From the IMG/VR virus record IMGVR_UViG_3300025168_000056, positions 1 to 64,000 of that record: 64,000 nt of DNA; one strand, 5' to 3'. The stretch comes from a virus. Numbering within the stretch: the first letter of the stretch is position 1; every line of letters starts with the position of its first letter. The notes beneath the pieces are model-generated. The model was not told where the DNA came from. It was given only the letters and a program-made list of their open reading frames with translations, and did no database searches. Below, piece after piece: positions 27,324 through 55,841 of the stretch. The translations under genes and the position numbers were made by a program.

Positions 27324-28583
27324 ATGACACAATATTACGCAAAATCAAATAATGAGAAGACCTCTGATTTATTTAACAAAAGGCTAAGGTACCGAATTCG
27401 CGCTAAAAACGCGCGCTATCAAAATAATAATCTAGTTGATTTTACAATTGGTGAAAAAAAATTGTATGGCAAAGTAGATATGTGGCACTCTCCTATTTTT
27501 GTAAAACACGAATCGAGACTGAAGCAGATTAGAAGCCAAAATCCCGAACAACCGCTGAGAGCATTTAGCTTTGTTGCTGACTTGTTTAACCAGATGGTAT
27601 CAGAGTTTGAGCGGTGTATGACAAATGGGCAAATTAGCAAAACAGATCCCTATTTATCTGAACTTAAAGCATACAAGGCATTCGAGGATCCCACTACCGG
27701 ATTCAATGAATACAAAGATATATTGTTTGATAAAATTAAGAGTCGATTTATGTTAGCTAATATAATGGTAGAAGATTTTCCTCATTTTTTAGACGAGTTT
27801 ATGAAGATAGCAAAGATCGCCATGAAAACTACACCGTTCACCCGCTCAGCATATATGAAAAGCGATCTTAATTCGATAATGAGCAGCGGACTGGCGATTG
27901 AGATCGCCGATCTGGATTACAGCGATGATGAAGGGAAAGTAGAGACTCTCCTTAAAAGCAAAAACTGGCAATTCTTTGTTAATGCTTGCAATAAGCATGG
28001 ATTTATCATTGATCGTAATATACCGTGGAGAATAATTTGCGATGTCAAAGCACCAGAAATTGAAATAGTGCGCAATCAGTATTACTTAACATCTATGGAT
28101 TTGTTTAATCAGGGATTCACGCACGCTTCAATTGATGGGTTGACTTTTTTACCCAGACAGCTGCTGCAACTCTACAACAAAGTTAAAAGAAAAAGATTTA
28201 AAAAACAAGTTATATGTGGAAAGAAGATGACTTATAAGGTCATTACTCCTCCAAGTTATTCTGTCAACGATCTCATTGGTCTGTATGGTTTAGATCATTG
28301 GGCTAAAATTTATATGAAGTTAAGGCTAATCGAAGAAAAGCCGGACATGGATCATCACCAAAAAAAATCTTTGGTCCGAGATACTCTTGAATACTTGAGG
28401 CTTAAAGGAGATTATTCGATTGTAGAAATATATTTTGAAAGATTTATTAATAAACCATTTGACAAAAGGTATTCCGCCACGTATAATAAGAATGTACTCC
28501 AACCTGCGATTGCCCAAGTGATGCAGGAACAGAGTATAGCATATTCTGCTAGCAGCATCAAACAGGCTATGACGAGTTATTAA
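27324..28583 (+). CDS. Hypothetical protein
   Basis: 419 aa ORF with RBS GAGG; no motif recognised. Confidence 0.6.
   Translation: MTQYYAKSNNEKTSDLFNKRLRYRIRAKNARYQNNNLVDFTIGEKKLYGKVDMWHSPIFVKHESRLKQIRSQNPEQPLRAFSFVADLFNQMVSEFERCMTNGQISKTDPYLSELKAYKAFEDPTTGFNEYKDILFDKIKSRFMLANIMVEDFPHFLDEFMKIAKIAMKTTPFTRSAYMKSDLNSIMSSGLAIEIADLDYSDDEGKVETLLKSKNWQFFVNACNKHGFIIDRNIPWRIICDVKAPEIEIVRNQYYLTSMDLFNQGFTHASIDGLTFLPRQLLQLYNKVKRKRFKKQVICGKKMTYKVITPPSYSVNDLIGLYGLDHWAKIYMKLRLIEEKPDMDHHQKKSLVRDTLEYLRLKGDYSIVEIYFERFINKPFDKRYSATYNKNVLQPAIAQVMQEQSIAYSASSIKQAMTSY
28459..28487 (+). promoter_or_regulatory. Consensus sigma70 promoter at the start of the replication module
   Basis: TTGACA-17 nt-TATAAT, perfect match, ~95 nt upstream of polA. 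Confidence 0.75.
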
Positions 28584-29761
28584 TGATTTTTCAAACACTG
28601 GACGATAAGTCCGAATGTATTGGAGTGTATGTTGAGGGGCAGCTGCATTTCAACAGTATTCCTGACAACCTAACAACAACATGGAAATACACAGGCTCTC
28701 TTGAAAACAGAGATGTAGAGTTTGTGGGCTTGTGGGTCAATGGTCTAGAATTGGAAGAATGCTGCCCAGAAGAGCACGCAGTCGAGTTAAAGCAGTGCCG
28801 TAATAAACTTGAGGCTTATCTAAAATCTTTCAAGATCGCAAAAGTCAATATGAGAGATCACTGTATATTCGATATGATCCCTCAAGATTTCTTGATGCGA
28901 TTTTGCGAAGTCAAAAACAAGGTCACAAAGCATGTCAAAGAAAACTGGGAAAGACCTAACAATTATAAGCACCTATCCGATGTTTCTAAGCTTCTGCATA
29001 AGATAAAATATCAAAATCTTAATTTATCTACACAAGACTGCCGCCATCTGCTGGTCTCCTCAAGAGATCGAGACAAAGCTAAGCTTCTGCTATCAAACTA
29101 TAGGCAGATTGACTACAACCTCTTTGGCACTGTTACCGGTAGGCTGACAACACGTCCGGATTCTTTCCCGATTCTGACTTTGAAGAAAGAACTACGACAA
29201 ATGGTCAAGCCACAGAATGATTTGTTTGTTTGCTTTGATTACAACGGAGCAGAGGTCAGAACACTGCTTGAGCTTTGCGGTGAAGAGCAGCCAGAGATTG
29301 ATATCCATGAGTGGAACAGTCGCCATCTTTTTGAACAAGAGATCACCAGAGAGGAATGCAAGGTGCGGTTTTTTGCATGGCTCTATGATCCTAAATCAAA
29401 AGATATCAAGAGTGAGCAGTATGATCGAAAGAAAGTTCTTGACAACTGGTACACCGACGGTTATATTAGTACACCATACGGTCGAAAGATTCGAGTAGAG
29501 GAAAGAAAAGCATTGAATTATTTGCTGCAAAGCACCACATCCGACAGGGTTCTCTCCAAGGCGGTAGAGATCGACAGGTTCCTGACAAACAATAATTGTA
29601 GTTCCTACATATCACATATCGTTCACGATGAGATCGTGATTGACTACTGCGACGAAGACCGGAAACTGATACCACAGATCAAAGAGATTTTTGAAGATGG
29701 GTATCCTTGCAATCTCACTGCCGGAAAGGATTATTACAATCTTAAAGAGTTGAAAATATGA
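28583..29761 (+). CDS. polA: Minimal family A DNA polymerase
   Basis: TGRL; motif A DYNGAEVR; motif B R...K..FF..LY; ALNYLLQST; motif C VHDEIV. Only 392 aa. Confidence 0.8.
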   Translation: MIFQTLDDKSECIGVYVEGQLHFNSIPDNLTTTWKYTGSLENRDVEFVGLWVNGLELEECCPEEHAVELKQCRNKLEAYLKSFKIAKVNMRDHCIFDMIPQDFLMRFCEVKNKVTKHVKENWERPNNYKHLSDVSKLLHKIKYQNLNLSTQDCRHLLVSSRDRDKAKLLLSNYRQIDYNLFGTVTGRLTTRPDSFPILTLKKELRQMVKPQNDLFVCFDYNGAEVRTLLELCGEEQPEIDIHEWNSRHLFEQEITREECKVRFFAWLYDPKSKDIKSEQYDRKKVLDNWYTDGYISTPYGRKIRVEERKALNYLLQSTTSDRVLSKAVEIDRFLTNNNCSSYISHIVHDEIVIDYCDEDRKLIPQIKEIFEDGYPCNLTAGKDYYNLKELKI

Positions 29762-30600
29762 TCTCCGTAATCGGCATTGGCAATGCGGCCTCTAAGGTCG
29801 CAGAGCTATTCAGCGGGACAAGCAACTACGATGTGTACAGCATGAATAGTTCGGTTAAGCGTTCCTCAAAGCGGAAATTTAAACTAAAGCGCTTTGACGA
29901 TCCAGAAGATTATGAAACCAACGTCCCAGATCTGAGCAAGTTTTTTGCCGAGGTGTCTGATGATGTTCAGGTTATTATTACTGGGTCTTCTTATAGTTCA
30001 AACTATACTTTGGGCATCTTATCACAAATTAGAGACAAAAATATTGAAGTATTCTACATAAAGCCTGATTCGGAACTCCTGACTGGCACACCGAAGCTTG
30101 TGGAAAATGCTGTGTTTGGTGTGCTTCAAGAGTACGCTCGATCAGGATTGTTCAAGTCGTTAACTATAATTTCTAATCTTGAAATAGAAAAATCACTTGA
30201 CAATATTCCAATTAAGAAGTATTATGAGTCTATCAACAATACAATTTTTTCCATGATTCATTACGTAAACTACTTCACTCACGCTGAACCAGAAATCGGC
30301 ATGGTTTCCAAGCCACTTGAGATTAATCGCATCCGAGCATACGGAGCCCTTAATCCAAAGAATCTTGAAGAAAAATGGTTTTTTAATCTTGACAGCCCTC
30401 GGGATGTATGTTATTATGTATGTATAAATCAGGAAACACTAGAGACAGATGGTACACTACACCGAAGACTTGTTGAAATTCTCAAAAGTAAGCCAAGAAA
30501 CACATTCCGACGTGTATCATATGCTGTCTATGAAACACCACACCAAACAGACTTTGGGTTCTGCGTTGCCCATACTAACGTAGTCCAAAAAAACACTTGA
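29758..30600 (+). CDS. Divergent tubulin/FtsZ-superfamily-like protein
   Basis: VIGIGNAASKVA N-terminus, YIKPD..L, IISN..I and YYESINNTI. The GGGTGS/TG loop is replaced by GSSYSS. Confidence 0.5.
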   Translation: MISVIGIGNAASKVAELFSGTSNYDVYSMNSSVKRSSKRKFKLKRFDDPEDYETNVPDLSKFFAEVSDDVQVIITGSSYSSNYTLGILSQIRDKNIEVFYIKPDSELLTGTPKLVENAVFGVLQEYARSGLFKSLTIISNLEIEKSLDNIPIKKYYESINNTIFSMIHYVNYFTHAEPEIGMVSKPLEINRIRAYGALNPKNLEEKWFFNLDSPRDVCYYVCINQETLETDGTLHRRLVEILKSKPRNTFRRVSYAVYETPHQTDFGFCVAHTNVVQKNT

Positions 30601-30678: not shown

Positions 30679-31449
30679 ATGACAATTGATATGGAACTAA
30701 TGCGACGTAAGCTCGCAACACTAAGGGGTAATAACCCCGACCAGAGAACTTCGGTTTTCTTTAAGCCAGACGAGGGGGACACTGATATTCGTATCGTGCC
30801 CGGTAAGGATGGCGACCCGCTTAAGGAAGTCCACTTCCATTATAATGTGGGTGAGCACAAGGGCGGCATCATGTGTCCAAAGCGTAACTTTGGAGAGCAT
30901 TGCCCAATTTGTGAATTTGCTTCGACCTTGTGGAAGGAAGGAGTAGCAACTAACGATGAGGAAAGCAAGAAGCTTGCAAAGAGTCTCTTTGTACGCCAAC
31001 GGTATTTCTCACCAGTCGTAGTCCGCGGCCGAGAGGACGAGGGAATTAAGATGTATGGCTATGGAAAGAAAGCTTATGAGCTTCTTCTTGGTTATATCCT
31101 TGACCCGGAGTACGGCGATATTACAGATCTTCAGTCTGGAACCGATATTACGTTGACTTACACTAAGCCAAATAAGCCCGGTGCCTATCCTCAAACTAAC
31201 TTGAAGATGCGTCGCAACACATCCACACTACTGCCTGATACGGAAGCGATCCCTGCCCTCCTCGATCGTATGCCTGATGTAGATACTCTTTTTGAGCGTC
31301 TTAGTCCAGAGCAGGTTGACGCAATTCTCGATGCACAGCTTTCTGGAAATACTTCCGCTGAAAGCCGCTCATCCGAGACAGCTAAGTACGGTCCCTCCAA
31401 CGGAACAAGTGAGGTTGATCGCGCATTTAATGAACTAATGAACGGCTGA
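30679..31449 (+). CDS. Single-stranded DNA-binding protein (gp32-like)
   Basis: IRIVP, H...CP...GE.CPICE zinc motif, G.DIT...G.DITL and an acidic/aromatic tail. Confidence 0.8.
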   Translation: MTIDMELMRRKLATLRGNNPDQRTSVFFKPDEGDTDIRIVPGKDGDPLKEVHFHYNVGEHKGGIMCPKRNFGEHCPICEFASTLWKEGVATNDEESKKLAKSLFVRQRYFSPVVVRGREDEGIKMYGYGKKAYELLLGYILDPEYGDITDLQSGTDITLTYTKPNKPGAYPQTNLKMRRNTSTLLPDTEAIPALLDRMPDVDTLFERLSPEQVDAILDAQLSGNTSAESRSSETAKYGPSNGTSEVDRAFNELMNG

Positions 31450-31470
31450 TCTAAATAGTTGGTTTGAGAA

Positions 31471-31510
31471 CCGATGGCAGACCGGGTGTGTAAATAGTCT
31501 GCCACATTTT
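31471..31510 (+). repeat. Hairpin repeat copy 1 (divergent loop)
   Basis: CCGAT-GGCAGAC-cgggtgtgtaaata-GTCTGCC-acatttt. Confidence 0.75.
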
Positions 31511-31529
31511 CTAATAAAAGGAGATAATC

Positions 31530-31820
31530 ATGTTAGAATCATTGAAATCACTGTGGGCGCGATGGAGAGTACAAGTGAGTGTTGTGGGTGGCGTTTTAGT
31601 CGTCGCAACTGCTTACGGTACCTGCTCTTACGAGCCACAAGTTGTGTCGGACGCGGGAGAAACCTCTAGCGCCGTCGAAACAACGGGAGAGAGTACTTCC
31701 GTAGAAGTGTCAGAGGAAATTACTACCACTAATACTGCTGAAACAACCACCGGTGCTGATGATGAAGGTACCACCACGGAGACCACCAACAGTGGTACCG
31801 ATAACACTACAAGCGAGTAG
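31530..31820 (+). CDS. Membrane-anchored Thr/Glu-rich small protein
   Basis: RBS AGGAG; hydrophobic N-terminal segment, then a low-complexity T/E/S tail. Confidence 0.7.
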   Translation: MLESLKSLWARWRVQVSVVGGVLVVATAYGTCSYEPQVVSDAGETSSAVETTGESTSVEVSEEITTTNTAETTTGADDEGTTTETTNSGTDNTTSE

Positions 31821-31830
31821 TAAGCAAATA

Positions 31831-31869
31831 GCCGCTGGCAGACCGGTCAAAAGTCTGCCGCTTTTTAAG
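31831..31869 (+). repeat. Hairpin repeat copy 2
   Basis: GCCGCTGGCAGACCGGTCAAAAGTCTGCCGCTTTTTAAG. Confidence 0.9.
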
Positions 31870-31954
31870 TCCTTGACAATTCCTTGACAAGAACTACCTT
31901 GCAATCCTCGTTTACCTATGGTATATTATATAGGTAATCAAGAAGGAGAAACCA

Positions 31955-32605
31955 ATGAAGATTATACCAACAATATTCGCTATGCTTTTAGCAGCCCCAA
32001 CCGCCGAAGCAGCCCGAACACCCTACATGTGGGGCATCGGACCAACGGTTAGTACTATAGTTCTACCAGGAAACCACCCGTTTGAGTTTCCAGATGTAGT
32101 TAAATCTGCTGGATTTAAGACGACCGGTGGCGATGTCGGATTTGGTTTGCATGGCGTTTTGCATATGCGAAAGAACCAACGATTCGGCTCTCACATGTGG
32201 TATCACGTTGGAGATAATGGATACAGTAGCCCCAATATGACGTTAGACTACGATTTTATCGGTACGTCAGCAAACAACGTTCACATTCTCGCCGGACTTG
32301 GTGTGGGCTTTGGCTCTCAAAGCTGGCTTAAGGAGAATGGCGCCGAGTTTAGGATGAATACCTTCATCGCACGCGCCCAAGCCAGTGTTGGGTTCCGTTC
32401 CAAGAGAAACTGCTATCAGGTTGGCGCATTTATGAATTTACATGTTCCTGGCGATCAGACGATCAATCGGACCAATGGCACACAGACAGATGTTCCTTTC
32501 ACTATCTACCCAACATTTGGGTTAGAATTTACTGCCTTCTTCGGAGATTTTAAGCCACCAAAGAAGCGTAGTAATCGCCGACGCAAGAAGAACAAGAAGA
32601 ACTGA
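31955..32605 (+). CDS. Secreted protein, possible outer-membrane beta-barrel
   Basis: Signal peptide ending AEA, alternating Gly/aromatic strands, basic tail. RBS AGGAG and upstream TTGCAA-17-TATATT. Confidence 0.6.
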   Translation: MKIIPTIFAMLLAAPTAEAARTPYMWGIGPTVSTIVLPGNHPFEFPDVVKSAGFKTTGGDVGFGLHGVLHMRKNQRFGSHMWYHVGDNGYSSPNMTLDYDFIGTSANNVHILAGLGVGFGSQSWLKENGAEFRMNTFIARAQASVGFRSKRNCYQVGAFMNLHVPGDQTINRTNGTQTDVPFTIYPTFGLEFTAFFGDFKPPKKRSNRRRKKNKKN

Positions 32606-32621
32606 GACAAGACAGAAGAAA

Positions 32622-32659
32622 GCCGCTGGCAGACCGGTCAAAAGTCTGCCGCTTTTAAG
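32622..32659 (+). repeat. Hairpin repeat copy 3
   Basis: GCCGCTGGCAGACCGGTCAAAAGTCTGCCGCTTTTAAG. Confidence 0.9.
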
Positions 32660-32680
32660 ATTTTCATAAGAGGAGAAATA

Positions 32681-32794
32681 ATGAAGTTTATCTTACCAAT
32701 CCTTACCGCTAGCCTACTGATGGCATGTGGAGACAAGGACGAAGACACAGCAGCTGATTCAGCCGCACCGGCTGAAGACACAGCCGCAGAATGA
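32681..32794 (+). CDS. Small lipoprotein (37 aa, absent from ORF track)
   Basis: RBS AGGAG. Translates MKFILPILTASLLMA-CGDKDEDTAADSAAPAEDTAAE with lipobox LMAC. Confidence 0.8.
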   Translation: MKFILPILTASLLMACGDKDEDTAADSAAPAEDTAAE

Positions 32795-32854
32795 AAATCG
32801 ACGATCTGCTAAATTTTTTCCCCGGTAAAAATTCCAGATTTTCGTTTTAAGCAT

Positions 32855-32890
32855 GCCGCTGGCAGACCGGTTAAAGTCTGCCGCTTTTAA
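32855..32890 (+). repeat. Hairpin repeat copy 4
   Basis: GCCGCTGGCAGACCGGTTAAAGTCTGCCGCTTTTAA. Confidence 0.9.
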
Positions 32891-32900
32891 AAAAAAGTTG

Positions 32901-32929
32901 TTTACAAATGTTAACAACTGTTATATAAT
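32901..32929 (+). promoter_or_regulatory. Sigma70-type promoter
   Basis: TTTACA-17-TATAAT. Confidence 0.65.
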
Positions 32930-33039
32930 GAGAAATATCCAAAGTGGTGAGGATCATAAAAATCCACATTAACTTAAAAGTGTAACTGCTACGGCTAATA
33001 AGCACTTTATCACACCGGCCATTGGCCACGGAGAAACCC

Positions 33040-34149
33040 ATGTCTTTTAAAGACGAAAAAGCGCCTGCTAGCGCTGAAACTAGCATCATGAATGTCAACG
33101 ACCTTAATGTGGTTGATATTAACGCAGACGAATCCAGAATTCGTGTAGGCTTTGATAACAAAGGATATATTGATTTAGATGTTATCGAAAAACTTACGAA
33201 GATTGAATTCAATGACGCGGAGTTTTCACATATCGACTGGTTAGATTTGAACGAGGTAGACACCAACACCTCTAACTGGAAGAACATTGGAATTCGTGAC
33301 ACCAACGACGAGGCTACGAGAATTGAAAGCTTCCGAGTTTCTTTCCGCCGATATGGATATGACATGTCGGAATTTCCACCATGCGGTGACACGGATGGAG
33401 ATATTATGGAGGGAAGAACTCGTATCAAGGCTGCTAAGCTAAACGGCTATTCTTATATGCCTATTGCTATCTACACTCGCAGCGTCAAGACAGAACGCAA
33501 CAGCATTACTAACGGACTTGTTGCTAATCAAAAGAAGCCAGTCTTTATGGCTACTTTCAATGATTATGTGGCTGCGGGAGTGAGCTTGATTGATAGTGAA
33601 GAACTTGAAGCTACTACCACTGATGTTGACAACTGGCTGAACCATGAAGTCAAGATTGGTCGAGTTTATGACAACGGTATTAACGGAATGGTTACTAAGA
33701 TTCGTAATGCAATCATAAGCCGCTCAAAGACAGATGACGGACTTATCTGGTCTCTGACCAAGTCTGATGCAGAGAAGTGGATCAAGACAAATCTTGGTTT
33801 AGCTAAGGCTGACTATGTTCTTATTAACATGGCAGATAACGAGACATACGCCGAGCGAGCTTGGCGACATGTGCGAGATGCCCTGAAGAACGGTCGAGAG
33901 CCAGTGAATCTGATCTTCTACACCACCGATAATAGCCCAACAGCGGCACGCGCAGGACTCAAGAAGTCGATGGGGTATGTAGAAGATTTGTACTGTGATT
34001 CTTGGGAGGTAGTCATGAGTCAATTGCCAGACGGCGTTTCCTTGACTATTCCAACTAAGCGCCCCTTTGTTTTCAAAGGAGCCTTGCCCCAGATTGTCAA
34101 CAGTCATAACATCAATGGCAGCAATCTAGTTTCAGTCGATAAGTACTAG
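33040..34149 (+). CDS. ParB/Srx-like domain protein
   Basis: SF...GY....PP......IMEGRTRIKAA...G...MP resembles the ParB N-terminal GxxR motif. ATG 33040 with RBS GGAG. Confidence 0.5.
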   Translation: MSFKDEKAPASAETSIMNVNDLNVVDINADESRIRVGFDNKGYIDLDVIEKLTKIEFNDAEFSHIDWLDLNEVDTNTSNWKNIGIRDTNDEATRIESFRVSFRRYGYDMSEFPPCGDTDGDIMEGRTRIKAAKLNGYSYMPIAIYTRSVKTERNSITNGLVANQKKPVFMATFNDYVAAGVSLIDSEELEATTTDVDNWLNHEVKIGRVYDNGINGMVTKIRNAIISRSKTDDGLIWSLTKSDAEKWIKTNLGLAKADYVLINMADNETYAERAWRHVRDALKNGREPVNLIFYTTDNSPTAARAGLKKSMGYVEDLYCDSWEVVMSQLPDGVSLTIPTKRPFVFKGALPQIVNSHNINGSNLVSVDKY

Positions 34150-35000
34150 TGAAAACGCCCTTGCGATATCCCGGCGGCAAATCCCGTGCCGTCAAGCATA
34201 TCCTACCCCACATCCCCGAAGGTGTCGAACGAGTTTGTTCGCCATTCTTCGGGGGTGGCTCAATAGAGCTAGCTTTAGCTAATCGTGGTATCCAAGTATT
34301 TGGCTACGACAAGATGAAGCAGCTTGTATGGTTTTGGCAGGGTCTGTGTGGCGACAGCAATAAGTTGGCTGATGAAGTAGAGAAGCTCCGAGAACAATAC
34401 CTGATTAGAAACGGCGACACCGTGACAGGGTGTTCCAAGGAGGCGTTCCATCAGTACCGCGAAGACCTGAAGATAGAAACGTTTATGTTCTCCTACGAGA
34501 GAGCAGCAAAATATTACATCATCAACAGGTCCGGGTTCTCTGGAGCTACGTTTAGTGGTGGTTGGTCCGAGAGAGCATCTTACGCAAGATTCACTGAATC
34601 TTCAGTGCAAAGACTCAGAGACTTTAACGCACAAAAATTTAGAGTGGATTACGCTGACTTTGAAGACGCTATCTTTTACCATCCAAAAGCTTTCTTATAT
34701 CTTGATCCGCCGTACATGTTAAAGGGTTCTCAGAATTCTCTGTACGGCGTTGATGGAAACTTGCATGATTCGTTTGATCATGAAAGATTGCACGGTATCT
34801 TAACAAACAGAACTGGCTGGCTAATGTCCTATAATGACTGTCCAGAAATCAGAGATATGTATAAAGATTATGAAATTGTTGAGGCAGAGTGGTCTTATGG
34901 TATGACTAATGTATATTCAAAAGAAGAGAAGAAAAAGAAAGCCGAAGAAGGCTACGTTAAAAAACAAAAACAGTCATCCGAGATACTAATTAAAGGGTAA
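34149..35000 (+). CDS. DNA adenine methyltransferase (Dam/D12 class)
   Basis: PLRYPGGKS, SPFFGGGS, YLDPPY and LMSYND motifs. Confidence 0.9.
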   Translation: MKTPLRYPGGKSRAVKHILPHIPEGVERVCSPFFGGGSIELALANRGIQVFGYDKMKQLVWFWQGLCGDSNKLADEVEKLREQYLIRNGDTVTGCSKEAFHQYREDLKIETFMFSYERAAKYYIINRSGFSGATFSGGWSERASYARFTESSVQRLRDFNAQKFRVDYADFEDAIFYHPKAFLYLDPPYMLKGSQNSLYGVDGNLHDSFDHERLHGILTNRTGWLMSYNDCPEIRDMYKDYEIVEAEWSYGMTNVYSKEEKKKKAEEGYVKKQKQSSEILIKG

Positions 35001-36112
35001 TGAATATGAAACCACTGATGAAAGACTGGCGCAAGTTTCTGAAAGAAGATATAGATGTACCTCCTGAAATGGAAAAAGATCTAGACGGACCACTCCCTGC
35101 CCCCAAAGACTCTCCGGAGAACAATTTAATGCGCACCCTTCGCACTATCGAGGCAGAGGGATATGACTACAAGCTTGTTAAGAACCAAATTAGAGTTTTG
35201 GACGATCATCGTTCGGAGACAATGGAGAAATTGATTCAAATGCTTACTCCGCTGGGATTTACCCACAACCCTATCGGCGGGGGCAGCAGCATAGGTCGCC
35301 TAGAGCTTGTTGATCGCAGCGCCGGCAGTGTTTACGTATATGTTAAGCCCAAGAAACGAACTGCTGCATCTGCTGGGATGGATTTTGAAGAGAAGTTGGC
35401 AAACGAAATTACTCAGCGATATAGTCACATGGGAGTTACTGCTGAAACAGCCGGCTTCGGTCACGGATCCGATCTCTCTATTAACAAGGGCGGACAAACG
35501 GTTATGACCGTGGAACTAAAGACAGCACTCTCAGCCGATTTTGGTCAATTTAAAGCCCAATTCAATACGGCCGCCGGGACATGGGAACCCCGCCGCACAG
35601 AGGGTTATCTTAAAAACGAAGGTATTTTTAAGCCTTTGTTCGACAACTACCTGCTGGACTGGCTCAATGCCAACGCGCGGTTTCCAAACATTAACGACCC
35701 ACGCCTAAACCGAGACAAGAATGAAAAAATTGCTGGACTTAAGCGTTCGCTAAACACTGGCGAGCTAAAGAGAGAACTGCAGGGACTATGGTTTGATGGC
35801 AAAACCGACATTAAAGTCCCGTTCGATTTCTCACATATTGCTGGCTACTATAGCGACAAAGGCGATTCGTTTATTCAAATTAACGGTCGTGGATTGTACG
35901 CCTTAAAGCCAGAAGCACAGACACTTGTTGACGTGCCCATGTTTAAAGATTTGGGGCTATCCTGTGATCTAAGATTCCGTTTCAAGCCATCGTCAGGTGA
36001 AAATAGCTCTACTAGTTTTACATGCGCAGTAAAAATCAAGGGTCGTTATAATAAGTCAAACCTTAGTTTGACAAATCCAAAAGATCTAGACAAAATCATA
36101 GCAACTCTATAA
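35000..36112 (+). CDS. Putative PD-(D/E)xK endonuclease
   Basis: AGMDFE...SDL...VELKT pattern; adjacent to the MTase; late motif at 34985. Confidence 0.5.
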   Translation: MNMKPLMKDWRKFLKEDIDVPPEMEKDLDGPLPAPKDSPENNLMRTLRTIEAEGYDYKLVKNQIRVLDDHRSETMEKLIQMLTPLGFTHNPIGGGSSIGRLELVDRSAGSVYVYVKPKKRTAASAGMDFEEKLANEITQRYSHMGVTAETAGFGHGSDLSINKGGQTVMTVELKTALSADFGQFKAQFNTAAGTWEPRRTEGYLKNEGIFKPLFDNYLLDWLNANARFPNINDPRLNRDKNEKIAGLKRSLNTGELKRELQGLWFDGKTDIKVPFDFSHIAGYYSDKGDSFIQINGRGLYALKPEAQTLVDVPMFKDLGLSCDLRFRFKPSSGENSSTSFTCAVKIKGRYNKSNLSLTNPKDLDKIIATL

Positions 36113-36119
36113 ATAACAC

Positions 36120-36148
36120 TTGACACCACCGATGGATAGTGGTATCAT
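36120..36148 (+). promoter_or_regulatory. Sigma70-type promoter
   Basis: TTGACA-17-TATCAT. Confidence 0.7.
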
Positions 36149-36172
36149 AATGAATAACTAACAGGAGGGCGA

Positions 36173-37321
36173 ATGCCTAAAAAGAAGACAGCTAAAGCTG
36201 GCAGAGTATCTATGCAGGATCTCATGTCGCTTGTAAATAAGAAAGCCGGCAGAAATGTCGCACACGATCTAACTGGCGACAACCCAACGTCAGTTAAAGA
36301 GTGGATTCCAACTGGCTCACGCTGGTTGGACTCAATCATCTGCAAGGGTCGAGTTGCCGGTATCCCAGTAGGGAAGGTGACAGAGATTGCAGGACTTGAA
36401 TCAACTGGTAAGTCATATATGGCCGCACAGATTGCCGCAAACGCCCAGAAACAGGGCAAGCTTGTGGTATATTTTGATTCTGAATCAGCAATCGACCCAA
36501 GTTTTTTGGAGCGTTCTGGCTGTGATTTAGACCGCTTAATGTATGTCCAAGCATCCTCTGTCGAGTTTGTTTTGGAGACTATCGAAGAGCTTCTTGGGGC
36601 TACTGATGAAAAGTTAGTTTTAATCTGGGATTCGCTGGCATTCACACCATCGGTTTCGGATGTTGAAGGCGACTTCAATCCACAGTCCTCGATGGCAGTG
36701 AAGGCTCGTATTCTTGCCAAGGGCATGTCAAAGCTGACAATCCCGCTGGCAGATAAGCAAGCAACGTTTATTGTTCTCAACCAATTGAAGACAAATATCC
36801 CGCAGGGACCAAACGCACGCATCGTTGCAATGACAACACCATATATCACGCCCGGTGGCAAGGCTATGCACTATGCCTATTCGTTGCGGATTTGGCTGAC
36901 AGGACGAAAGGCAAAGTCTTCGTTTATTGAAGACGACAAGGGCTTCCGAATTGGGTCCGAGGTCAAGATTAAGCTTGAAAAGTCTCGCTTTGGTTCGCAG
37001 GGTCGCTCTTGTGCTTTCCGAATCCTGTGGGGTACTGAGGAAATTGGAATCCGAGACGAAGAAAGTTGGTTTGATGCAATCAAGGGAGCCGAAAGCTTAA
37101 CCTCTGCTGGCGCTTGGTACACACTATCAACACCAGACGGATATACAAAGAAGTTCCAGCCGTCGAAGTGGACTGAATTAATAAAGAGCGATAAAGAGTT
37201 TCGTTCTCGTGTTATTGAGATCATGGATGAAGAAATTGTACAGAAGTTTGATAAGCGTGAGGGTGATGCAAAGGCTTATTATGAAGATCAAGAAGATCTG
37301 ACAGTTCCAGTAAAAGAATAA
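36173..37321 (+). CDS. recA: RecA/UvsX recombinase
   Basis: IPTGS..LD, Walker A GLESTGKS, YFDSE, WDSLA, NQL and PGGKA motifs. Confidence 0.92.
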   Translation: MPKKKTAKAGRVSMQDLMSLVNKKAGRNVAHDLTGDNPTSVKEWIPTGSRWLDSIICKGRVAGIPVGKVTEIAGLESTGKSYMAAQIAANAQKQGKLVVYFDSESAIDPSFLERSGCDLDRLMYVQASSVEFVLETIEELLGATDEKLVLIWDSLAFTPSVSDVEGDFNPQSSMAVKARILAKGMSKLTIPLADKQATFIVLNQLKTNIPQGPNARIVAMTTPYITPGGKAMHYAYSLRIWLTGRKAKSSFIEDDKGFRIGSEVKIKLEKSRFGSQGRSCAFRILWGTEEIGIRDEESWFDAIKGAESLTSAGAWYTLSTPDGYTKKFQPSKWTELIKSDKEFRSRVIEIMDEEIVQKFDKREGDAKAYYEDQEDLTVPVKE

Positions 37322-45746: not shown

Positions 45747-45948
45747 AGAAACTAATTTGGGTCGCGTTCCGGTCGGCTCAATTATCATATATAAAGACAA
45801 AGCGTGGAAGACACTAAACAAGATTGATGGTATGAGTCAAATGCTCATTACTAATATCGGTGATGGTGATCGAGAGAGTATTTTACTTGCTTCTTCAGCT
45901 GAAGTGTGTTATATTAGAGACGTAATCAAAATTTCCAAGGAGGCATAA
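45730..45948 (+). CDS. Hypothetical protein
   Basis: Fills the gap and overlaps both neighbours. Confidence 0.45.
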   Translation: MKLKTEETNLGRVPVGSIIIYKDKAWKTLNKIDGMSQMLITNIGDGDRESILLASSAEVCYIRDVIKISKEA

Positions 45949-48900
45949 TGGATCGTTCTGATTCTAAGATTAAGTTTGTTGGGCTACACGCCCATAGTGT
46001 GGCAGGTTCTATTTTTGATGCGATTGGGTACCCCCAAGCGCATATGGACTTTTGCTATGAGAATGGTGGAGAAGCACTGGCTCTCACAGATCATGGCAAC
46101 ATGAACGGGTTGGCATATCAGGTTCTTCATGCAAAGAATATGAAAGACTCCGGCAAGGAGTTTAAGCCTATCTTTGGGTGCGAGGCTTACTTCATCCCAT
46201 CGATCGATGAGTGGCGAGAAGAGTACACTCGTGCGATGGAAGATAAGAAGCGCGCCCGCTCTGCTAAGAAGGATGCAGCTTCAGGCGCGACTGTTGAGGA
46301 TGAGGGTGCTTCAAAGAAGACTCAAGATATCCTCCGTCGGCGCCGCCACCTAGTTCTTTTGGCGCAAAACCAGACTGGACTGAACAACCTGTTTAAACTA
46401 GTCTCAGAGAGCTACCAGTCAGAAAATTTCTATAGGTACCCTCGTATAGACTATAAGCTTTTAAAGAAGTACAACGAAGGAATCATCGCCGCTAGCGCGT
46501 GTCTTGGTGGCGTATACGCTGGAAACTACTGGGAGAACCGTGAGGAAGGAGATGAAGCCGTTTTGGATGCAATGCGAGAGACAACGCAAAGTATGGTTGA
46601 CATCTTTGGAGACCGCTGGTACGCTGAGATTCAGTGGAATAATATTAAAGAACAGCACGAACTCAACAAATATGTTATCCAGACAGCACAAGAGATGGGC
46701 GTTAGCTTGATCACTACCGCAGATAGTCACTATCCTACGCCAACCGCATGGAAGGATCGTGAGTTGTACAAGCGTCTAGGTTGGCTGGGTAAGGGTCGAC
46801 CTTCGTGGGCAGACGAAGAGTCACAGCTTCCCGAAGGTGTGGAAGAGATTGGCTATGAATTGTATCCAAAGAATGGTGATCAGATCTGGGAGAGTTACAA
46901 ACAATACTCCAAAGACCAAGGATTTGAATACGATGATGAGTTGGTGATGCAAAGTATTGAAGAAACGCACAGGATCGCATTCGATAGAATCGAATCGTTC
47001 CTCCCAGACAATACTGTTCGTCTTCCGGAGTTTGTTGTACCGGCGGGGTTTACCGCTACTCAAGCGCTTGTTAATTATGCACTTGAAGGGTTAAAAGATA
47101 GAGGGCATCACAAAAATAAGGATTATATCGAGCGGTTGAAGCACGAACTGAATGTTATTGATGACCGCGGCTTTTCTAAATACTTCTTGACAATGAAATC
47201 GATTGTCGATGTAGCAACAGAAATGATGCTCACCGGTCCCGGCCGCGGCTCTGCTGCCGGCTCGTTAGTCGCCTATGCGCTTGGTATTACGCAAGTAGAC
47301 CCAATCAAATATGACCTTCTGTTCTCTCGGTTCCTTCGCTCTGACGCTAAGGACTACCCAGATATTGATTATGATGTATCTGACAGCATGTCTCTAAAAG
47401 AGAAGTTAGTGGAGATGTGGGGCGAAGATTGTGTCGCACCAATCTCTAATTGGAATACGCTGCAGCTTAAGTCTTTGATTAAGGATATCTCTAAGTTGTA
47501 CAACATTCCATTCACCGAAGTGAACACTGTTACTTCTATCATGATTCGCGAAGCCACCCCGGAAGCCAAGCGAAAGCACGGTATCAAGGCTGGTGTGTAT
47601 GCTCCGACTTGGGAAGAAGTGATGGAGTTTTCTCCTGCGCTTAGGGCATATCTCAACAAGTATCCACAAGTCAAGACACACGTTGAGGGATTGGTCGGTC
47701 AAGTACGCTCTTGCTCCCGTCATGCTGGTGGTGTAGTGATTGCTGAGAACCTTGATGCGAACATGCCGCTGATCAATTCAGGTGGTGTGCGCCAAGCACC
47801 GTGGGCAGAGGGTCAAAACGTTCGACACCTTGAACCCATGGGCTTCATTAAGTTTGATTTGCTTGGGCTGTCTACTCTTAAGATGATGGAGGGTTGCATC
47901 GAACATATCCTGCGCCGTCATCACGGAGTAGAGAATCCAACCTTTGCACAAGTGCGAGACTACTATGAAGATAAGTTGCACCCCGACAAGATGGACATGC
48001 ACGACGCCTCTATCTATGAAAATGTATTCCACACAGGAAAGTGGGCAGGAGTGTTCCAATTCACGGAACCCGGCGCTCAACAGTTTTGCGTAAAGGCTAA
48101 GCCGAACAATATCATTGATGTTTCTGCCATTACTTCAATCTTTCGACCCGGTCCACTATCGGCGGGTGTTGATGCAGATTATGTAGAAGCAAAGGGACAC
48201 CCGCAGCGTATTAGCTACCTTTCCGATGAAGCTCGTGAGATCACCGAGGAGACATACGGGTTCCTAATCTTCCAGGAGCAGATTGCTTTGCTTGCTCACA
48301 AGCTCGGCGGACTGACTCTTGATGAGGGCAACATGCTCCGTAAGGTTCTGACAAAGAAGGGCACAGGCAAGGGGTCCGTTAAAGGTCTGCTGCATGATAA
48401 GTTTATCAAGGGCTGCGTAGTTAATAATATTGCGCGCGATGAAGCCCAATCCCTCTGGGACAAGTTTGAATTCTTCTCGGGCTATGGCTTTAACAAGTCA
48501 CACGCTGTAAGTTACTCGATCATCTCCTATCAGTGTGCGTGGTTGTGGAACTACTACCCAGCAGAGTGGATGGCAGCTTTCTTAGATAAGGAACCAGAGA
48601 CGCGTAAAGAGAAGGCTATTAATATTGCCAAGCAATATGGATTTGATATTGCACCACTTGATGTTAATAAATCAGGCACAGTGTGGGAGATTAGTGATGA
48701 CGGAAAAACACTGATTCAGCCTCTCACTTCAATTAAAGGGTTGGGAGCAGCCGCAATCGAGCAGATTCTTGCAAACCGTCCACTAAACAGCGCTGAAGAG
48801 CTTTTGTTTAATGAGAGTATTACGTACTCCAAGCTGAACAAGAAGTGTCTTGATGCTCTATGTCGCGGCGGAGCTTTGGATAATATTGTCGACAGTCGTT

Positions 48901-49379
48901 TTACTGGTCGTAAGCACTTTTGGTCCGCATGCATTGTGGATCGCCCGAAGAATCTAAAAAAGCTTGGCGAGAACATTGAGCTATACAGACCAGAAGGGGA
49001 TTTCTCTGAGTCAGAGATTATTCAGTTTAAGTCTGACCTAACTGGGGTCTTCCCGATGAACTTGGTTATCAAGCCAGAGACTGTGCAGCGCCTGCAAGAC
49101 AGGTTCGTGCCACCAATCTCAGAGTTTGATCAGGAGCTTGAAGTGTGTTGGTTTATTCCACGCAAGATTGTACCGAAGAAAACGAAGAAAGGTAAAGACT
49201 ACTGGATTGTAGAAGTTATTGATTCTAACAACGAGCTTACCCGCATCCGATGTTGGGGCGTCAAGCCCGAGAAGGATCGTATCCACTTGAACCGCCCGTA
49301 TATGGCTCGCTTAAAGTATGACGAGAACTGGGGCTTTTCAACCTACGCCGTCGGCAAAACATTTAAGTTGCTGGCATAA
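45948..49379 (+). CDS. dnaE: DNA polymerase III alpha subunit (family C)
   Basis: PHP domain (LHAHS, ALTDHG, DSHY), GPGRGSAAGSLV, PDIDYD, HAGGVV, KFDLLGL and YGFNKSHA. Confidence 0.95.
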   Translation: MDRSDSKIKFVGLHAHSVAGSIFDAIGYPQAHMDFCYENGGEALALTDHGNMNGLAYQVLHAKNMKDSGKEFKPIFGCEAYFIPSIDEWREEYTRAMEDKKRARSAKKDAASGATVEDEGASKKTQDILRRRRHLVLLAQNQTGLNNLFKLVSESYQSENFYRYPRIDYKLLKKYNEGIIAASACLGGVYAGNYWENREEGDEAVLDAMRETTQSMVDIFGDRWYAEIQWNNIKEQHELNKYVIQTAQEMGVSLITTADSHYPTPTAWKDRELYKRLGWLGKGRPSWADEESQLPEGVEEIGYELYPKNGDQIWESYKQYSKDQGFEYDDELVMQSIEETHRIAFDRIESFLPDNTVRLPEFVVPAGFTATQALVNYALEGLKDRGHHKNKDYIERLKHELNVIDDRGFSKYFLTMKSIVDVATEMMLTGPGRGSAAGSLVAYALGITQVDPIKYDLLFSRFLRSDAKDYPDIDYDVSDSMSLKEKLVEMWGEDCVAPISNWNTLQLKSLIKDISKLYNIPFTEVNTVTSIMIREATPEAKRKHGIKAGVYAPTWEEVMEFSPALRAYLNKYPQVKTHVEGLVGQVRSCSRHAGGVVIAENLDANMPLINSGGVRQAPWAEGQNVRHLEPMGFIKFDLLGLSTLKMMEGCIEHILRRHHGVENPTFAQVRDYYEDKLHPDKMDMHDASIYENVFHTGKWAGVFQFTEPGAQQFCVKAKPNNIIDVSAITSIFRPGPLSAGVDADYVEAKGHPQRISYLSDEAREITEETYGFLIFQEQIALLAHKLGGLTLDEGNMLRKVLTKKGTGKGSVKGLLHDKFIKGCVVNNIARDEAQSLWDKFEFFSGYGFNKSHAVSYSIISYQCAWLWNYYPAEWMAAFLDKEPETRKEKAINIAKQYGFDIAPLDVNKSGTVWEISDDGKTLIQPLTSIKGLGAAAIEQILANRPLNSAEELLFNESITYSKLNKKCLDALCRGGALDNIVDSRFTGRKHFWSACIVDRPKNLKKLGENIELYRPEGDFSESEIIQFKSDLTGVFPMNLVIKPETVQRLQDRFVPPISEFDQELEVCWFIPRKIVPKKTKKGKDYWIVEVIDSNNELTRIRCWGVKPEKDRIHLNRPYMARLKYDENWGFSTYAVGKTFKLLA

Positions 49380-53029: not shown

Positions 53030-54045
53030 GTCAAAAATTTAATTTATCATATGACGATGTATTGCTGGAACCACAGTACTCCGATATACGAAGTCGCTCT
53101 GAGATTGATATCTCGACAGATTTAAGCAAGGGTGTTAAATTAGCTCTGCCTATTTTCGCTTCACCGATGGATACTATCTCTGAATCCGCAATGGCCAACG
53201 CTCTTGGTGCATGTGGAGGAAGCGCAATTATCCACAGATATAACTCAATTGATGAGCAAGCCCGCCATGTATCGAAATCACAGGATACACACGTTGGTGC
53301 CGCAATTGGGGTTTCCGGAGATTTTTTGGAAAGAGCCAGAGAAGTAGTTGCTTGTGGTGCCGATTTTATCTGTGTAGATGTTGCCCATGGACACCATGTA
53401 ATGATGCAGGAAGCATTAGGAGAACTACGTTTGCTGCTTGGTGACGACTATCACATTATGGCTGGAAACGTGGCGACCCTTGGGGGGATCAATGATCTCT
53501 CTGACTGGGGCGCCGATAGTGTGCGCTGTAATATTGGCGGCGGGTCAATCTGTTCGACAAGAATTCAGACCGGTCATGGCATGCCCGGCTTACAGACTAT
53601 ATTTGAATGCGCGAAGACCGATCGGGATGTTAAGATTATAGCTGACGGCGGAATTAAAAACTCCGGAGACATTGTTAAAGCTTTGGCCGCAGGCGCCGAT
53701 GCGATTATGATAGGCTCACTGCTAGCTGGTACAACTGAGTCGCCTGGAAACCTAATCAAAGACGGTAACGGAGTTACGTGGAAAGAGTACAGAGGAATGG
53801 CGTCCAAAGAAGCCCAAATGAGTTGGCGGGGCAAATATTCTTCGTTTGAGGGTGTTGCTAGCAAGGTGCCTTACCGCGGCTCAGTTAAACATATTCTAAA
53901 AGATATTCAAAAGGGGATCCGTTCTGGTTTTTCATATTCAGGCGCGCGAAACTTACAACAGTTGCATGCAAAAGCAAAGTTTCTTATCCAAACGGCTTCC
54001 GGGCTGTCCGAAAGTAGAACACACATCACCACAAGGAAGTGGTGA
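53026..54045 (+). CDS. IMP dehydrogenase/GMP reductase family protein without CBS domains
   Basis: [38 protein letters not shown] and YRGMAS motifs. Confidence 0.9.
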
Positions 54046-54371
54046 TGTCATCCGGGATAGATTATGGAAAGCTGACAAAAAGGATAGTCTTCACAGAAAC
54101 CGATCACAGACATGCTCAATTAGTGTTGAAACTTAAACACGACGGAGTAAAACAATCAGAATTTTTTCGTTCAATTGTGACTGCTTATATTGCAGGGGAC
54201 GATAGAATTCAGATGTATATCGATGAGGTGAGTTCGTTGTCGAAAGAGAGAAAAATAAAGTCCAAGAAGCTTAGAACAGCAGGTAAACAAAAAATTGCTG
54301 ACTTTGGGTTTACGGATGGCGAGATAGACAACATCTTCGATCTCATTGAAGAGGAGCACCCAGAACTATGA
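54045..54371 (+). CDS. Hypothetical protein, possibly a small DNA-binding protein
   Basis: Coupled ORF with a beta-alpha-alpha-like N-terminus. Confidence 0.45.
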   Translation: MSSGIDYGKLTKRIVFTETDHRHAQLVLKLKHDGVKQSEFFRSIVTAYIAGDDRIQMYIDEVSSLSKERKIKSKKLRTAGKQKIADFGFTDGEIDNIFDLIEEEHPEL

Positions 54372-54628
54372 CTAAAGATGGTTTACGTATATGTTCCCGA
54401 AAATGTATGGAATTAAAAACGGCATGCCCTAACGAAGAATGTCGATTGTGGATAGATTTTAAAAATGAGTATAACTGTACTTTGATATCTATTTATGAGA
54501 ACGGACCGATGACCTTACGTGAAATTGCTGAACGCTCTGGCATATCATTTGCGAGAGTAAAACAGATTGAAACGAAGGCGGTTGGGAAGATAAAAAACAC
54601 GAAAATTTTGAGTTGTTTTGAATTTTAG
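54368..54628 (+). CDS. Stand-alone sigma70 region-4 HTH protein with Cys-rich N-terminus
   Basis: MTLREIAERSGISFARVKQIETKAV.KI is a canonical region 4.2. Confidence 0.75.
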   Translation: MTKDGLRICSRKCMELKTACPNEECRLWIDFKNEYNCTLISIYENGPMTLREIAERSGISFARVKQIETKAVGKIKNTKILSCFEF

Positions 54629-54691
54629 GGAACTATAAACAACTGAACACTATTTATATTTGAGTTTCGAAAACCTTAAGGAGATTTTATA

Positions 54692-55345
54692 ATGGCTCGT
54701 AAAAATTTACTAACAGAAAGCGAATTACGTCGCTTCATGAAACTCGCCGAGATGCGTCCAATTGGCGAGGAAAAGATTCAAGAGATGTACGGCGGAATGC
54801 CGGGCGCTCGTGATGACGAAGAAGAACTGGATGAAGAAGAGATGGAAATGGACATGGACATGGGTGCTGAAGAGGCTCCTGTTGATGAACTGCCCATGGA
54901 CGACGAGCCTGCAATGGACGATGAACCAGAGATGGGTGCCGCACCAGAAGGCGATATGGAGCTTTCTGATGATGAAGCTCAAGCTATTATCGATTTGGCC
55001 GATAAGCTTCGCGCTGCCATGGGTGGCGAGGAAGGTGAGGCTGAAATGGAAATGGGAGCGGAAGACGACCTCGAAGCACCGGAAGGGGGTGATTCACTAG
55101 AAATGGATGCTGAAGAGGAACCCATGATGGAAGGCGAAGATGATGATGAAGAAGAAGATCAGCGCGCCGCACGCAAGCAGCGTAAGGACCGTGAAGATCA
55201 CCAGCGCAAGATTCGCGAAGGCGATGACGAAGATATTGTTGCTGAGGTAGCACGTCGTGTAGCCGAGCGTCTTCAAGCTGAAAGCAAGAAGGAAGAAATT
55301 GTCGACCAACTTGCTGAAAGAATTATGAAGAGACTCACTAAGTAA
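54692..55345 (+). CDS. Acidic prohead core/scaffold-like protein
   Basis: E/D/M-rich; LLTESELRRFMKLA resembles the scaffold's RMKKLAG; late motif at 54649. Confidence 0.55.
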   Translation: MARKNLLTESELRRFMKLAEMRPIGEEKIQEMYGGMPGARDDEEELDEEEMEMDMDMGAEEAPVDELPMDDEPAMDDEPEMGAAPEGDMELSDDEAQAIIDLADKLRAAMGGEEGEAEMEMGAEDDLEAPEGGDSLEMDAEEEPMMEGEDDDEEEDQRAARKQRKDREDHQRKIREGDDEDIVAEVARRVAERLQAESKKEEIVDQLAERIMKRLTK

Positions 55346-55346
55346 C

Positions 55347-55405
55347 TTGACAAATCATAACGAGCCTGTTATACTATTAACCACTAGTCTTTACTAGTGG
55401 TTAAT
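55347..55405 (+). promoter_or_regulatory. Sigma70 promoter followed by a perfect 13 bp inverted repeat
   Basis: TTGACA-17-TATACT, then ATTAACCACTAGT-cttt-ACTAGTGGTTAAT. Confidence 0.65.
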
Positions 55406-55409
55406 TTAT

Positions 55410-55841
55410 TTGGAGTGTAGTTTGGGACATGTTTGGTGGTTGTACCTATTAGTTTTTATATTTGGGTACTTTACTTGTAGAACATTTTATTTTATCAGAG
55501 AGGTTAGGCTCGGGCTTGTAATGCTCAAGTTGTCTCATTACCTTTCCCTCTATACTATTGTTAGAGGCGTTGAAAGCATGGAATATGCTAAGGCAACGCG
55601 CATCAATGAGATGCGAAAAAAAGAAGAGACAGACAAAAATATTAAAGCATATCAATTAAATTTTGATACTGAGATAAAACTTTATAAAGATAAGGCGATC
55701 AGAGAGATAATTAATATGCACCCTAAGTTTTATCGTGAGTTGCTTGAATACGATGATTGGGAATCTGCAATGCGCTTCTTGAATGAAGGGGGCGCTGATT
55801 ACATAAGACATTTTAACAACAAAGAGGGGAACTTAACATGA
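55410..55841 (+). CDS. Hypothetical membrane-anchored protein
   Basis: N-terminal TM segment WWLYLLVFIFGYF; start uncertain. Confidence 0.55.
   Translation: MECSLGHVWWLYLLVFIFGYFTCRTFYFIREVRLGLVMLKLSHYLSLYTIVRGVESMEYAKATRINEMRKKEETDKNIKAYQLNFDTEIKLYKDKAIREIINMHPKFYRELLEYDDWESAMRFLNEGGADYIRHFNNKEGNLT

Follow-up and report, generated by a model that had tools for sequence, protein, structure and literature searches.

The DNA analysed here (the window) is a stretch of 64,000 nucleotides that forms part of IMG/VR virus record IMGVR_UViG_3300025168_000056, which contains 77,849 bases and is estimated to be about 40% complete. A major head protein, a tail sheath, a ribonucleotide reductase and a DnaB-like helicase are among the proteins encoded by the record, and further products encoded in the window include a gp32-like single-stranded DNA-binding protein (SSB), a split family-A polymerase, a D12 methyltransferase and RecA. 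This report concerns the interval between two of these genes, the gp32-like gene (30679-31449, + strand, 256 aa; Pfam PF08804 gp32, E 8e-15), whose product has 348 relatives in IMG/VR, and the RecA-like recombinase gene (36173-37321, + strand; Pfam PF00154, E 7e-36), which forms the conserved right border of a variable slot. Four copies of a short repeat lie in this slot between small accessory genes; rather than a simple hairpin, the repeat forms an H-type RNA pseudoknot.

A search of the window with the pattern GGCAGAC-CGG-N(3-12)-GTCTGCC returned four matches (31476, 31837, 32628 and 32861), all on the + strand, while no match was obtained in any of 100 shuffled versions of the window. The four conserved copies listed in a first-pass annotation of this DNA, which had described an array of envelope protein genes bracketed by a hairpin repeat, were confirmed at the same sites, and neither pattern search nor covariance model gave a further copy in the whole 77,849-base record. 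Each copy contains two helices (S1 and S2, with strands a and b) and the loops L1 and L3. Copy 1 (31471-31510, + strand; S1a to S2b 31471-31503) is of a long-L3 gp32 type and scored 31.3 bits with the covariance model. It is made up of S1a CCG (31471-73), L1 AT, S2a GGCAGAC (31476-82), S1b CGG (31483-85), an L3 of 11 nt, GTGTGTAAATA (31486-96), S2b GTCTGCC (31497-503), ACA and TTTT (31507-10), and its S2 lies 26 nt from the start codon of the next gene. Copy 2 (31831-31866, core 31832-31859, + strand, 69.7 bits) is of a short-L3 type and reads G-CCG (31831-34), L1 CT, S2a (31837-43), CGG (31844-46), L3 TCAAAA, S2b (31853-59), GC and TTTTT. Copy 3 (32622-32656, core 32623-32650, + strand, 66.2 bits) does not differ from copy 2 over 35 nt and is separated at S2 from the next start codon by 30 nt, which is too tight for a promoter. 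Copy 4 (32855-32888, core 32856-32882, + strand, 53.5 bits) has TTAAA as L3, 1 nt shorter than in copies 2 and 3, followed by GC and TTTT, so that copies 2 to 4 are indeed near identical, as had been noticed at the outset. The 5' CCG and the loop CGG were found in all four copies. The repeats are spaced by 361, 791 and 233 nt with an open reading frame (ORF) in each interval, and a CRISPR-like array was therefore rejected.

The genes between the repeats were found to be as first described. The first, orf96 (31530-31820, + strand, 96 aa), encodes a protein with an N-terminal hydrophobic anchor and a low-complexity Thr/Glu-rich tail; it has homologues in 70 related loci and gave no match in Pfam or PHROG. 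The product of orf216 (31955-32605, + strand, 216 aa) has a signal peptide, a predicted 8-stranded outer-membrane beta-barrel and a basic C-terminal tail. Its AlphaFold model (pLDDT 85.3) is an 8-stranded barrel for which the best Foldseek matches were OmpW 2f1v, the transmembrane domain of OmpA (1bxw) and NspA (probability 1.00, TMq 0.55), and it is thus predicted to be an OmpW/OmpA-like outer-membrane barrel; only 9 homologues were found among 5.8 billion proteins. Contigs of two marine metatranscriptome libraries from one study matched orf216 only (32002-32488, 95-100% identity), which indicates presence in an RNA library and is not proof of transcription; the lack of cover outside orf216 carries no meaning. 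The third gene, orf37 (32681-32794, + strand), encodes a 37-aa lipoprotein-like peptide (MKFILPILTASLLMAC...) with a lipobox-like LLMAC and an acidic tail, and its homologues in 48 related loci are sited after gp32, orf96 or orf216. With a predicted barrel, a lipoprotein-like peptide and a membrane-anchored protein among the products, the term envelope proteins seems a fair one for orf96, orf216 and orf37, and the envelope type of these proteins implies a diderm host. Exclusion and receptor masking are among their possible roles.

The 60-bp spacer behind orf37 (32795-32854, + strand) contains an inverted repeat of its own (GATCTG...CAGAT) and a T6 run, is kept in the related locus L130 and may be a degenerate or second terminator-like structure. 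Two sigma-70-like promoter candidates were recognized on the + strand. The one ahead of orf216 (31899-31927; TTGCAA, 17 nt, TATATT with TG) matches the consensus at 9 of 12 positions plus an extended -10, a consensus match only, and two TTGACA hexamers lie immediately upstream of it. The other follows copy 4 (32901-32929; TTTACA, 17 nt, TATAAT; 11 of 12), with which it would make up a terminator-plus-promoter composite. Beyond it lies a variable block that is missing in many relatives (33022-36112, + strand) and holds orf375, a D12 adenine methyltransferase gene (34149-35000) and orf370 (35000-36112, 370 aa), the last with a weak PHROG match only. Both orf216 and orf375 lie behind promoter-bearing pseudoknots and share the ribosome-binding stretch GGAGAAACC(A/C)ATG (31945-31957 and 33030-33042); because of this match, orf375 probably starts at the ATG at 33040, not at the TTG at 33022.

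In its general anatomy the element has an S1 of (G)CCG paired with the first three to four bases of the loop, CGG(Y), the fourth pair being variable, an L1 of 1-2 nt, an S2 of 7-8 bp ((U)GGCAGAC/GUCUGCC(R)) and an A-rich L3 of 3-11 nt. When IMG/VR was scanned with the stem fixed and the loop free, the loop started with CGG in about nine tenths of the matches listed, and the exceptions carried matching changes in the 5' flank. In two more IMG/VR scans a base other than C was demanded at position -5 or -4 (-1 being the base next to S2 on its 5' side) and the loop was left unconstrained. With G at -5 the loop started with CGC (loop base 3 = C) in 35 of 44 instances, with T it started with CGA in 13 of 16 and with A it started with CGT in 6 of 9, while T at -4 was accompanied by CAG (loop base 2 = A) in 13 of 17 and G at -4 by CCG in 4 of 9. 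A formal count was then made over 150 distinct 23-mers, a set in which both partners of a pair had never been fixed by any search. The covariation score of S1 was 0.414 compared with 0.161 ± 0.014 in shuffles, none of 500 shuffles reached it, and sliding the partners by 1-3 columns gave at most 0.136. The four inner S1 pairs were paired in 93%, 88%, 87% and 73%, with CG, GC, UA and AU types all occurring, and S1 was lengthened to 5-8 bp in many lineages. The early guess that the CCG pairs with the loop CGG was borne out by this covariation.

The second helix also varies with its pairing kept. In the gp32 family S2 was paired in 99.8%, four of the seven pairs showed changes on both sides, and the variants included GGCAGAG/CTCTGCC, GGCACCC/GGGTGCC, GGCAGAT/ATCTGCC and GGTGCCC/GGGCACC. 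The element therefore has the crossing two-helix topology of an H-type pseudoknot with compensatory changes in each helix. U(-1) faced the base after S2 as U:G in 42 and as U:A in 33 of 93 instances (75 of 93 together), so that S2 may be 8 bp long and L1 a single base. The first-pass annotation had placed a bulged T in the stem, which the sequence allows, but pairing of U(-1) with the post-stem base fits the comparative data better. That the element acts as RNA rather than DNA is indicated by its G:U pairs and by the fact that it always runs in the same direction as the genes.

We found no counterpart of this structure in the collections that were searched. With Rfam 15 the window gave no match at gathering score, the region 31400-33000 gave no relevant match at E up to 10, and six unrelated motif-bearing loci gave tRNAs only. 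Neither the region nor the 43-nt repeat had a useful blastn match among 50,697 phage records. A generic pseudoknot scan with a reversed-sequence control was dominated by low-complexity matches, pairing being preserved under reversal. A literature search, which did not extend to the supplementary list of PMC10690425, found no description of the motif; the candidate RNAs reported in that paper lie upstream, not downstream, of gp32 genes.

The location of the element was determined with a covariance model (R1) run on 847 kb of loci which had been fetched through the gp32 protein alone. All 93 matches were on the gp32 strand and downstream of gp32, and no match was obtained upstream of gp32 in these loci. 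R1 matches at E <0.001 were confined to the gp32-recA slot both in the record analysed and in two relatives with complete genomes of about 190 kb. In all 53 distinct sequences downstream of gp32, taken from relatives that had not been selected for the motif, a pseudoknot-like element follows the gp32 stop directly. The CCG/CGG type accounts for 37 of them and a second type for 10; 3 have an 8-bp S1 and 3 have one mismatch in S2. The 3' end of the gp32-like SSB gene is the ancestral pseudoknot site. The second element occupies the same slot and reads YCC-RCAGG-GAGGCAY-(N)GGR...-RTGCCTC, then a T-run. It was seen directly after gp32 in L146, L163, L164, L168, L169, L189, L195, L196, L102, L034 and L026; by eye its 3-nt flank covaries with loop bases 2-4 (CCC/GGG, UCC/GGA, ACC/GGU), and the element resembles a further class of pseudoknot, having a 3-bp first helix and a 5-nt L1. 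The lineage that carries the slot is a marine myovirus. The phage is not T4-type; its nearest cultured relative is Microcystis phage Mel-JY01 (PP395634.1, 190,001 bp), with a gp32 identity of 33%. In Mel-JY01 only 8 nt lie between gp32 and RecA (53808-55723), a PolA fragment and helicase follow the pair and the slot is closed, so that an open slot would seem to be particular to the marine lineage.

Gene content between the conserved repeats varied among relatives, as had been anticipated from the single genome. Among 119 loci holding both genes the distance from gp32 to recA ranged from 70 bp to 5.4 kb, and the slot contained nothing, orf37 alone, orf96 alone, orf96 and orf37, and up to added methyltransferases, orf375, orf216 and others. 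Breakpoints of these insertions and deletions were located at the repeats. In one subclade homology breaks exactly at the pseudoknots: L165 has gp32, pseudoknot and recA, L134 has an extra orf37 with a second pseudoknot, and L057 has a further 1.3-kb insert ending in a third copy, the insert thus lying between two copies. Compared with the window, L127, L133 and L132 are missing 31869-32620, which holds the promoter, orf216 and one pseudoknot, as well as 32892-36154, and in L127 and L133 the deletion of orf216 spans copy 2 to copy 3. Relatives of the L128 type have a 214-bp insert immediately 3' of copy 2 (31867/31872), homology with L127, L130 and L132 breaks after copy 4 (32891/32892), and the right junction relative to the window is always inside the recA leader (36155-36163). 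Assembly contigs from public DNA runs, taken at ≥90% likeness and possibly stemming from related strains, stop at the repeats with differing sequences beyond, and one contig of run X3 joins 31508 to 31826 and so is without orf96. No backward joints were listed for the public runs, for which contigs only were available.

The same motif was found in other phages. About 40 loci that were fetched by the motif contain no homologue of gp32, recA or orf280, the 280-aa ORF located upstream of gp32 in the window, and range from 47% to 73% GC. All scans together gave 128 distinct instances outside the gp32 lineage, placed a median of 25 nt after a stop codon on the same strand and a median of 23 nt before the next start codon. 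In these L3 is A-rich (39% A), and a T-run follows in about 30% of copies only. Among 92 distinct upstream proteins, Pfam families of major capsid proteins were matched by 9, 7, 1, 1 and 1, where some proteins may match two of the families, and single-stranded DNA-binding families by 7 (Enc34-like PF10991, weak matches), 6 (SSB PF00436) and 1 (gp32 PF08804); two were tail tube proteins. The downstream genes were diverse, and five unrelated phage records that were checked, one of them complete, had 1-2 copies each. A host-derived REP-like (repetitive extragenic palindromic) element was ruled out, as 596 Gb of prokaryote genomes gave 21 matches, mostly in small contigs of metagenome-assembled genomes and several in likely phage contigs or prophages, compared with at least 119 matches in IMG/VR. 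In L207 and L209 (Sphingomonas genomes) and in L084 the pseudoknot is located between a gene for a bacterial-type SSB (C-terminus DDLDDD(I/V)PF) and one for a protein of about 940 aa; these loci are prophage- or phage-contig-like, have 63-66% GC and lack a U-run behind the pseudoknot. The pseudoknot is thus not an invention of the marine lineage. From its neighbours it would seem to be a single-site mark behind genes whose products the phage needs in the largest amounts.

The reading that we prefer, with confidence a little better than even, is that the element is an intercistronic pseudoknot which serves as an attenuator and/or barrier to 3' decay and whose repeats serve as linkers for recombination of cassettes. 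A conserved RNA element had been offered as the fallback in the first-pass annotation, and it is this suggestion that comes closest to the data. The pseudoknot would punctuate the transcript as a partial terminator and/or a barrier to 3'-to-5' decay, the very abundant upstream message being kept high and expression stepped down for what follows, a logic known from intercistronic stabiliser hairpins. In the marine lineage a cassette consists of ribosome-binding site, ORF and pseudoknot, each small accessory gene between gp32 and recA having its own 3' copy. The direct repeats of 35-45 bp that result are the places at which cassettes are deleted, inserted or swapped, most likely through homologous recombination by the phage's own machinery over short patches of homology. 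The first-pass annotation had suggested the neighbouring SSB and RecA as possible agents of this. Termination or stabilisation is what we infer from the structure and its surroundings: T4 or longer was observed within 12 nt after S2 in 85% of gp32 family copies, and T4-T5 starting 2-3 nt after S2 in all four window copies, which by sequence thus resemble intrinsic terminators with a GC-rich hairpin and close U-tract. A simple terminator scan overlooks the repeats (loops >8 nt). Promoters scoring at least 9 of 12 were present in 11 of the 17 family copies with longer spacers (11 of 79 overall).

Several observations weigh against this reading. The next Shine-Dalgarno sequence and start codon lie no more than 45 nt behind 60 of 79 gp32 family copies (76%), where room for a promoter is absent. 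Where the slot is empty or holds one cassette, recA comes 20-30 nt after a pseudoknot; since recA is essential and has to be transcribed past the element in several arrangements, efficient termination is excluded and read-through must be common. Nor can termination be the general function of the motif, because a U-run is found in only about 30% of the copies outside the family. The RNA runs provided contigs covering orf216 only and no mapped RNA 3' ends. Concerning recombination, the breakpoints at 34150 and 35011 are at plain gene borders without a pseudoknot. They enclose the methyltransferase module (34150-35011), which has 95% nucleotide identity to L130 while the flanking core genes have about 84%, suggesting recent exchange of the module. 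Identical loops were more frequent between copies within one genome than between genomes (0.17 vs 0.10), but homogenisation within a genome was not significant (p ~0.07) and nothing points to conversion still going on. Cassettes that merely travel with their own 3' element would likewise give breakpoints at repeats. Apart from these points, a stimulator of programmed read-through or frameshifting was considered and ruled out, as the quartiles of the stop-to-pseudoknot distance are 11, 25 and 52 nt (21, 11, 17 and 61 nt in the window), and it is also disfavoured by a second in-frame stop three codons after the gp32 stop.

An operator that responds to SSB is an unlikely explanation, though it accounts for several features. 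By analogy with T4, free gp32 would nucleate at the pseudoknot, spread over the AU-rich leader and repress the next cistron, the logic of the gene 32 operator being moved 3' of the gene, and in an empty slot expression of a recA/uvsX-type gene would be tied to the level of free SSB. The geometry is like that of the gene 32 pseudoknot (short L1, S2 of 7-8 bp), the motif lies directly behind ssDNA-binding genes of the gp32 PF08804, SSB PF00436 and, weakly, Enc34-like PF10991 families, an AU-rich stretch of 26-30 nt behind copies 1 and 3 holds the Shine-Dalgarno sequence and start codon, and recA is the next gene in empty-slot relatives. However, major capsid genes precede the motif about as often as SSB genes do, copies lie behind orf96, orf216 and orf37 too, the downstream genes are diverse, and the T4 operator is located 5' of gene 32, not 3'. 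A riboswitch-like RNA, which would bind a ligand or protein and tune read-through by setting the pseudoknot against closure of the terminator stem at its base, has a very small chance of being correct. It would suit a compact H-type pseudoknot with an A-rich L3, a near-invariant U(-1) and GGCA/UGCC, and a G(-3) with two possible partners, one in S1 and the other C(+2) of an extended stem, but not a position 3' of genes instead of in 5' leaders, an L3 of freely varying length and sequence, the lack of a tie to any single metabolic gene class, or the lack of a match in Rfam.

That the repeats are ordinary intrinsic terminators, alike only through recent copying along with their genes and with functionless CCG/CGG complementarity, is already disfavoured and appears quite improbable. 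The GC-rich stem with T4-T5 in all four copies, the identity of copies 2 and 3 and the T-run in 85% of family copies would all be expected of such terminators. On the other hand, S1 shows full Watson-Crick compensation across many independent lineages, phages with GC contents from 43% to 73% retain the motif, the five unrelated records checked have 1-2 copies each, which is not the behaviour of a general terminator, and 70% of copies outside the family have no U-run. A site at the DNA level, either an attC-like or other hairpin site for a site-specific recombinase or HUH enzyme or a single-stranded DNA structure in replication or recombination, is very improbable. The layout of ORF plus 3' repeat in a single orientation does resemble an integron array, and breakpoints do lie at the repeats. 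The attC-like locus proposed in the first-pass annotation did not hold, since the element has no GTTRRRY core and, at about 30 nt, does not reach the 57-141 bp of attC, and no PF00589 tyrosine recombinase was found in our own record (about 40% complete) or in the two complete 190-kb relatives, while control genomes were all positive. Furthermore, G:U pairs are A:C mismatches on the opposite strand, the element is always oriented with transcription, and in the five unrelated phage records it is an intercistronic element of 1-2 copies.

We also considered a broader reading than the intercistronic attenuator or decay barrier alone, and hold it with slightly less than even confidence. According to this, the motif would represent an undescribed and very widespread class of phage pseudoknot that marks the 3' ends of genes for the most abundant proteins (SSBs of three Pfam families and major capsid), a dosage punctuation acting via RNA polymerase, the ribosome, 3' exonucleases or SSB, which in the marine lineage has been co-opted as a linker for exchange of envelope cassettes. 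If these readings are true, large lytic phages would have a sequence-defined boundary element for integrase-free gain and loss of single genes, extending the idea of promoter-early stem-loops (PeSLs) beyond T4-type phages, and a small, abundant and strongly covarying RNA structure would join the short list of phage cis-elements. This structure would accompany the genes with the highest expression in phages that differ widely, and might find use as a part that insulates expression. The cassette products would be candidate proteins by which uncultured marine phages of an abundant group remodel the surface of their hosts. What this analysis adds is the presence of the motif in other lineages, its association with genes for SSBs and capsid proteins, a formal statistical count on S1 and the argument that read-through must be frequent.

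Some neighbouring genes were also recorded. The family-A DNA polymerase upstream of gp32 is apparently split in two ORFs (27324-28583 and 28583-29761), and orf280, 3' of it within the region 27324-30600, starts in overlap with the end of the polymerase and has no Pfam or PHROG match. A 1143-aa DNA polymerase (PHROG 405) is encoded at 45948-49379 in addition to the split PolA, and a GroEL-type chaperonin at 58246-59826.

Among known systems, morons are genes with their own promoter and terminator. Like these, the cassettes are single accessory genes with their own regulatory ends between core genes, here with envelope products, but morons are not defined by a common flanking repeat, whereas one conserved element bounds every cassette in the slot. 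Intercistronic stabilisers and terminators include REP hairpins, the puf operon hairpin and the 3' hairpins of T7 left by RNase III. The pseudoknot resembles them as a stable structure between an abundantly expressed cistron and a less expressed one, with a U-run in the gp32 family; it differs in being a pseudoknot of conserved sequence common to very different phages, for which stabilisation or termination would be the presumed role. The attC sites of integrons are imperfect inverted repeats of 57-141 bp with R''/L''-L'/R' cores (GTTRRRY) and an associated integron integrase. Promoterless ORFs in one orientation, each with a terminal structured repeat, and an array that varies between relatives are shared with integrons, while an element of about 30-45 nt, borders without GTTRRRY and selection at the RNA level (G:U pairs) are not.

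The T4/T2 gene 32 mRNA pseudoknot, which is summarised in PMC10690425, is a translational operator in the 5' leader of gene 32. It has a short L1 and a second stem of about 7 bp, and the SSB binds cooperatively to the operator RNA. Both structures are H-type with a very short L1, adjoin a gp32-type SSB gene and are followed by AU-rich sequence with a ribosome-binding site. The pseudoknot described here is unrelated in sequence, lies 3' of the SSB gene instead of in its 5' leader, so that it could control the next gene only, and is also found after genes for bacterial-type SSB, Enc34-like SSB and capsid proteins.

The closest resemblance is to the PeSLs of T4-type phages (Arbiol et al. 2010, PMC2839356; Comeau et al. 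2014, PMC4122927), for which recombination over short homology of the kind we favour has been proposed. In both cases accessory genes of ORFan type in a hyperplastic region lie between short conserved regulatory repeats, the indels that distinguish close relatives start and end in the repeats and no dedicated recombinase was found, and copies 2 and 4 here, each followed by a sigma-70-like promoter candidate, would correspond to a terminator-plus-promoter composite. PeSLs are G-run/C-run stem-loops spread over many hyperplastic regions, with terminator activity that has been measured and mini-circles that arise by exchange between repeats, whereas the element here is a covarying pseudoknot confined to the gp32-recA slot and present in 1-2 copies in unrelated phages, and in place of the composite of promoter and stem-loop 76% of family copies are promoterless and lie 25-45 nt before a start codon. 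The repeat cannot strictly be called a PeSL. The most fitting classification is a variant of the PeSL-like shuffling of regulatory cassettes, one that relies on a phage RNA pseudoknot which seems not to have been described before.

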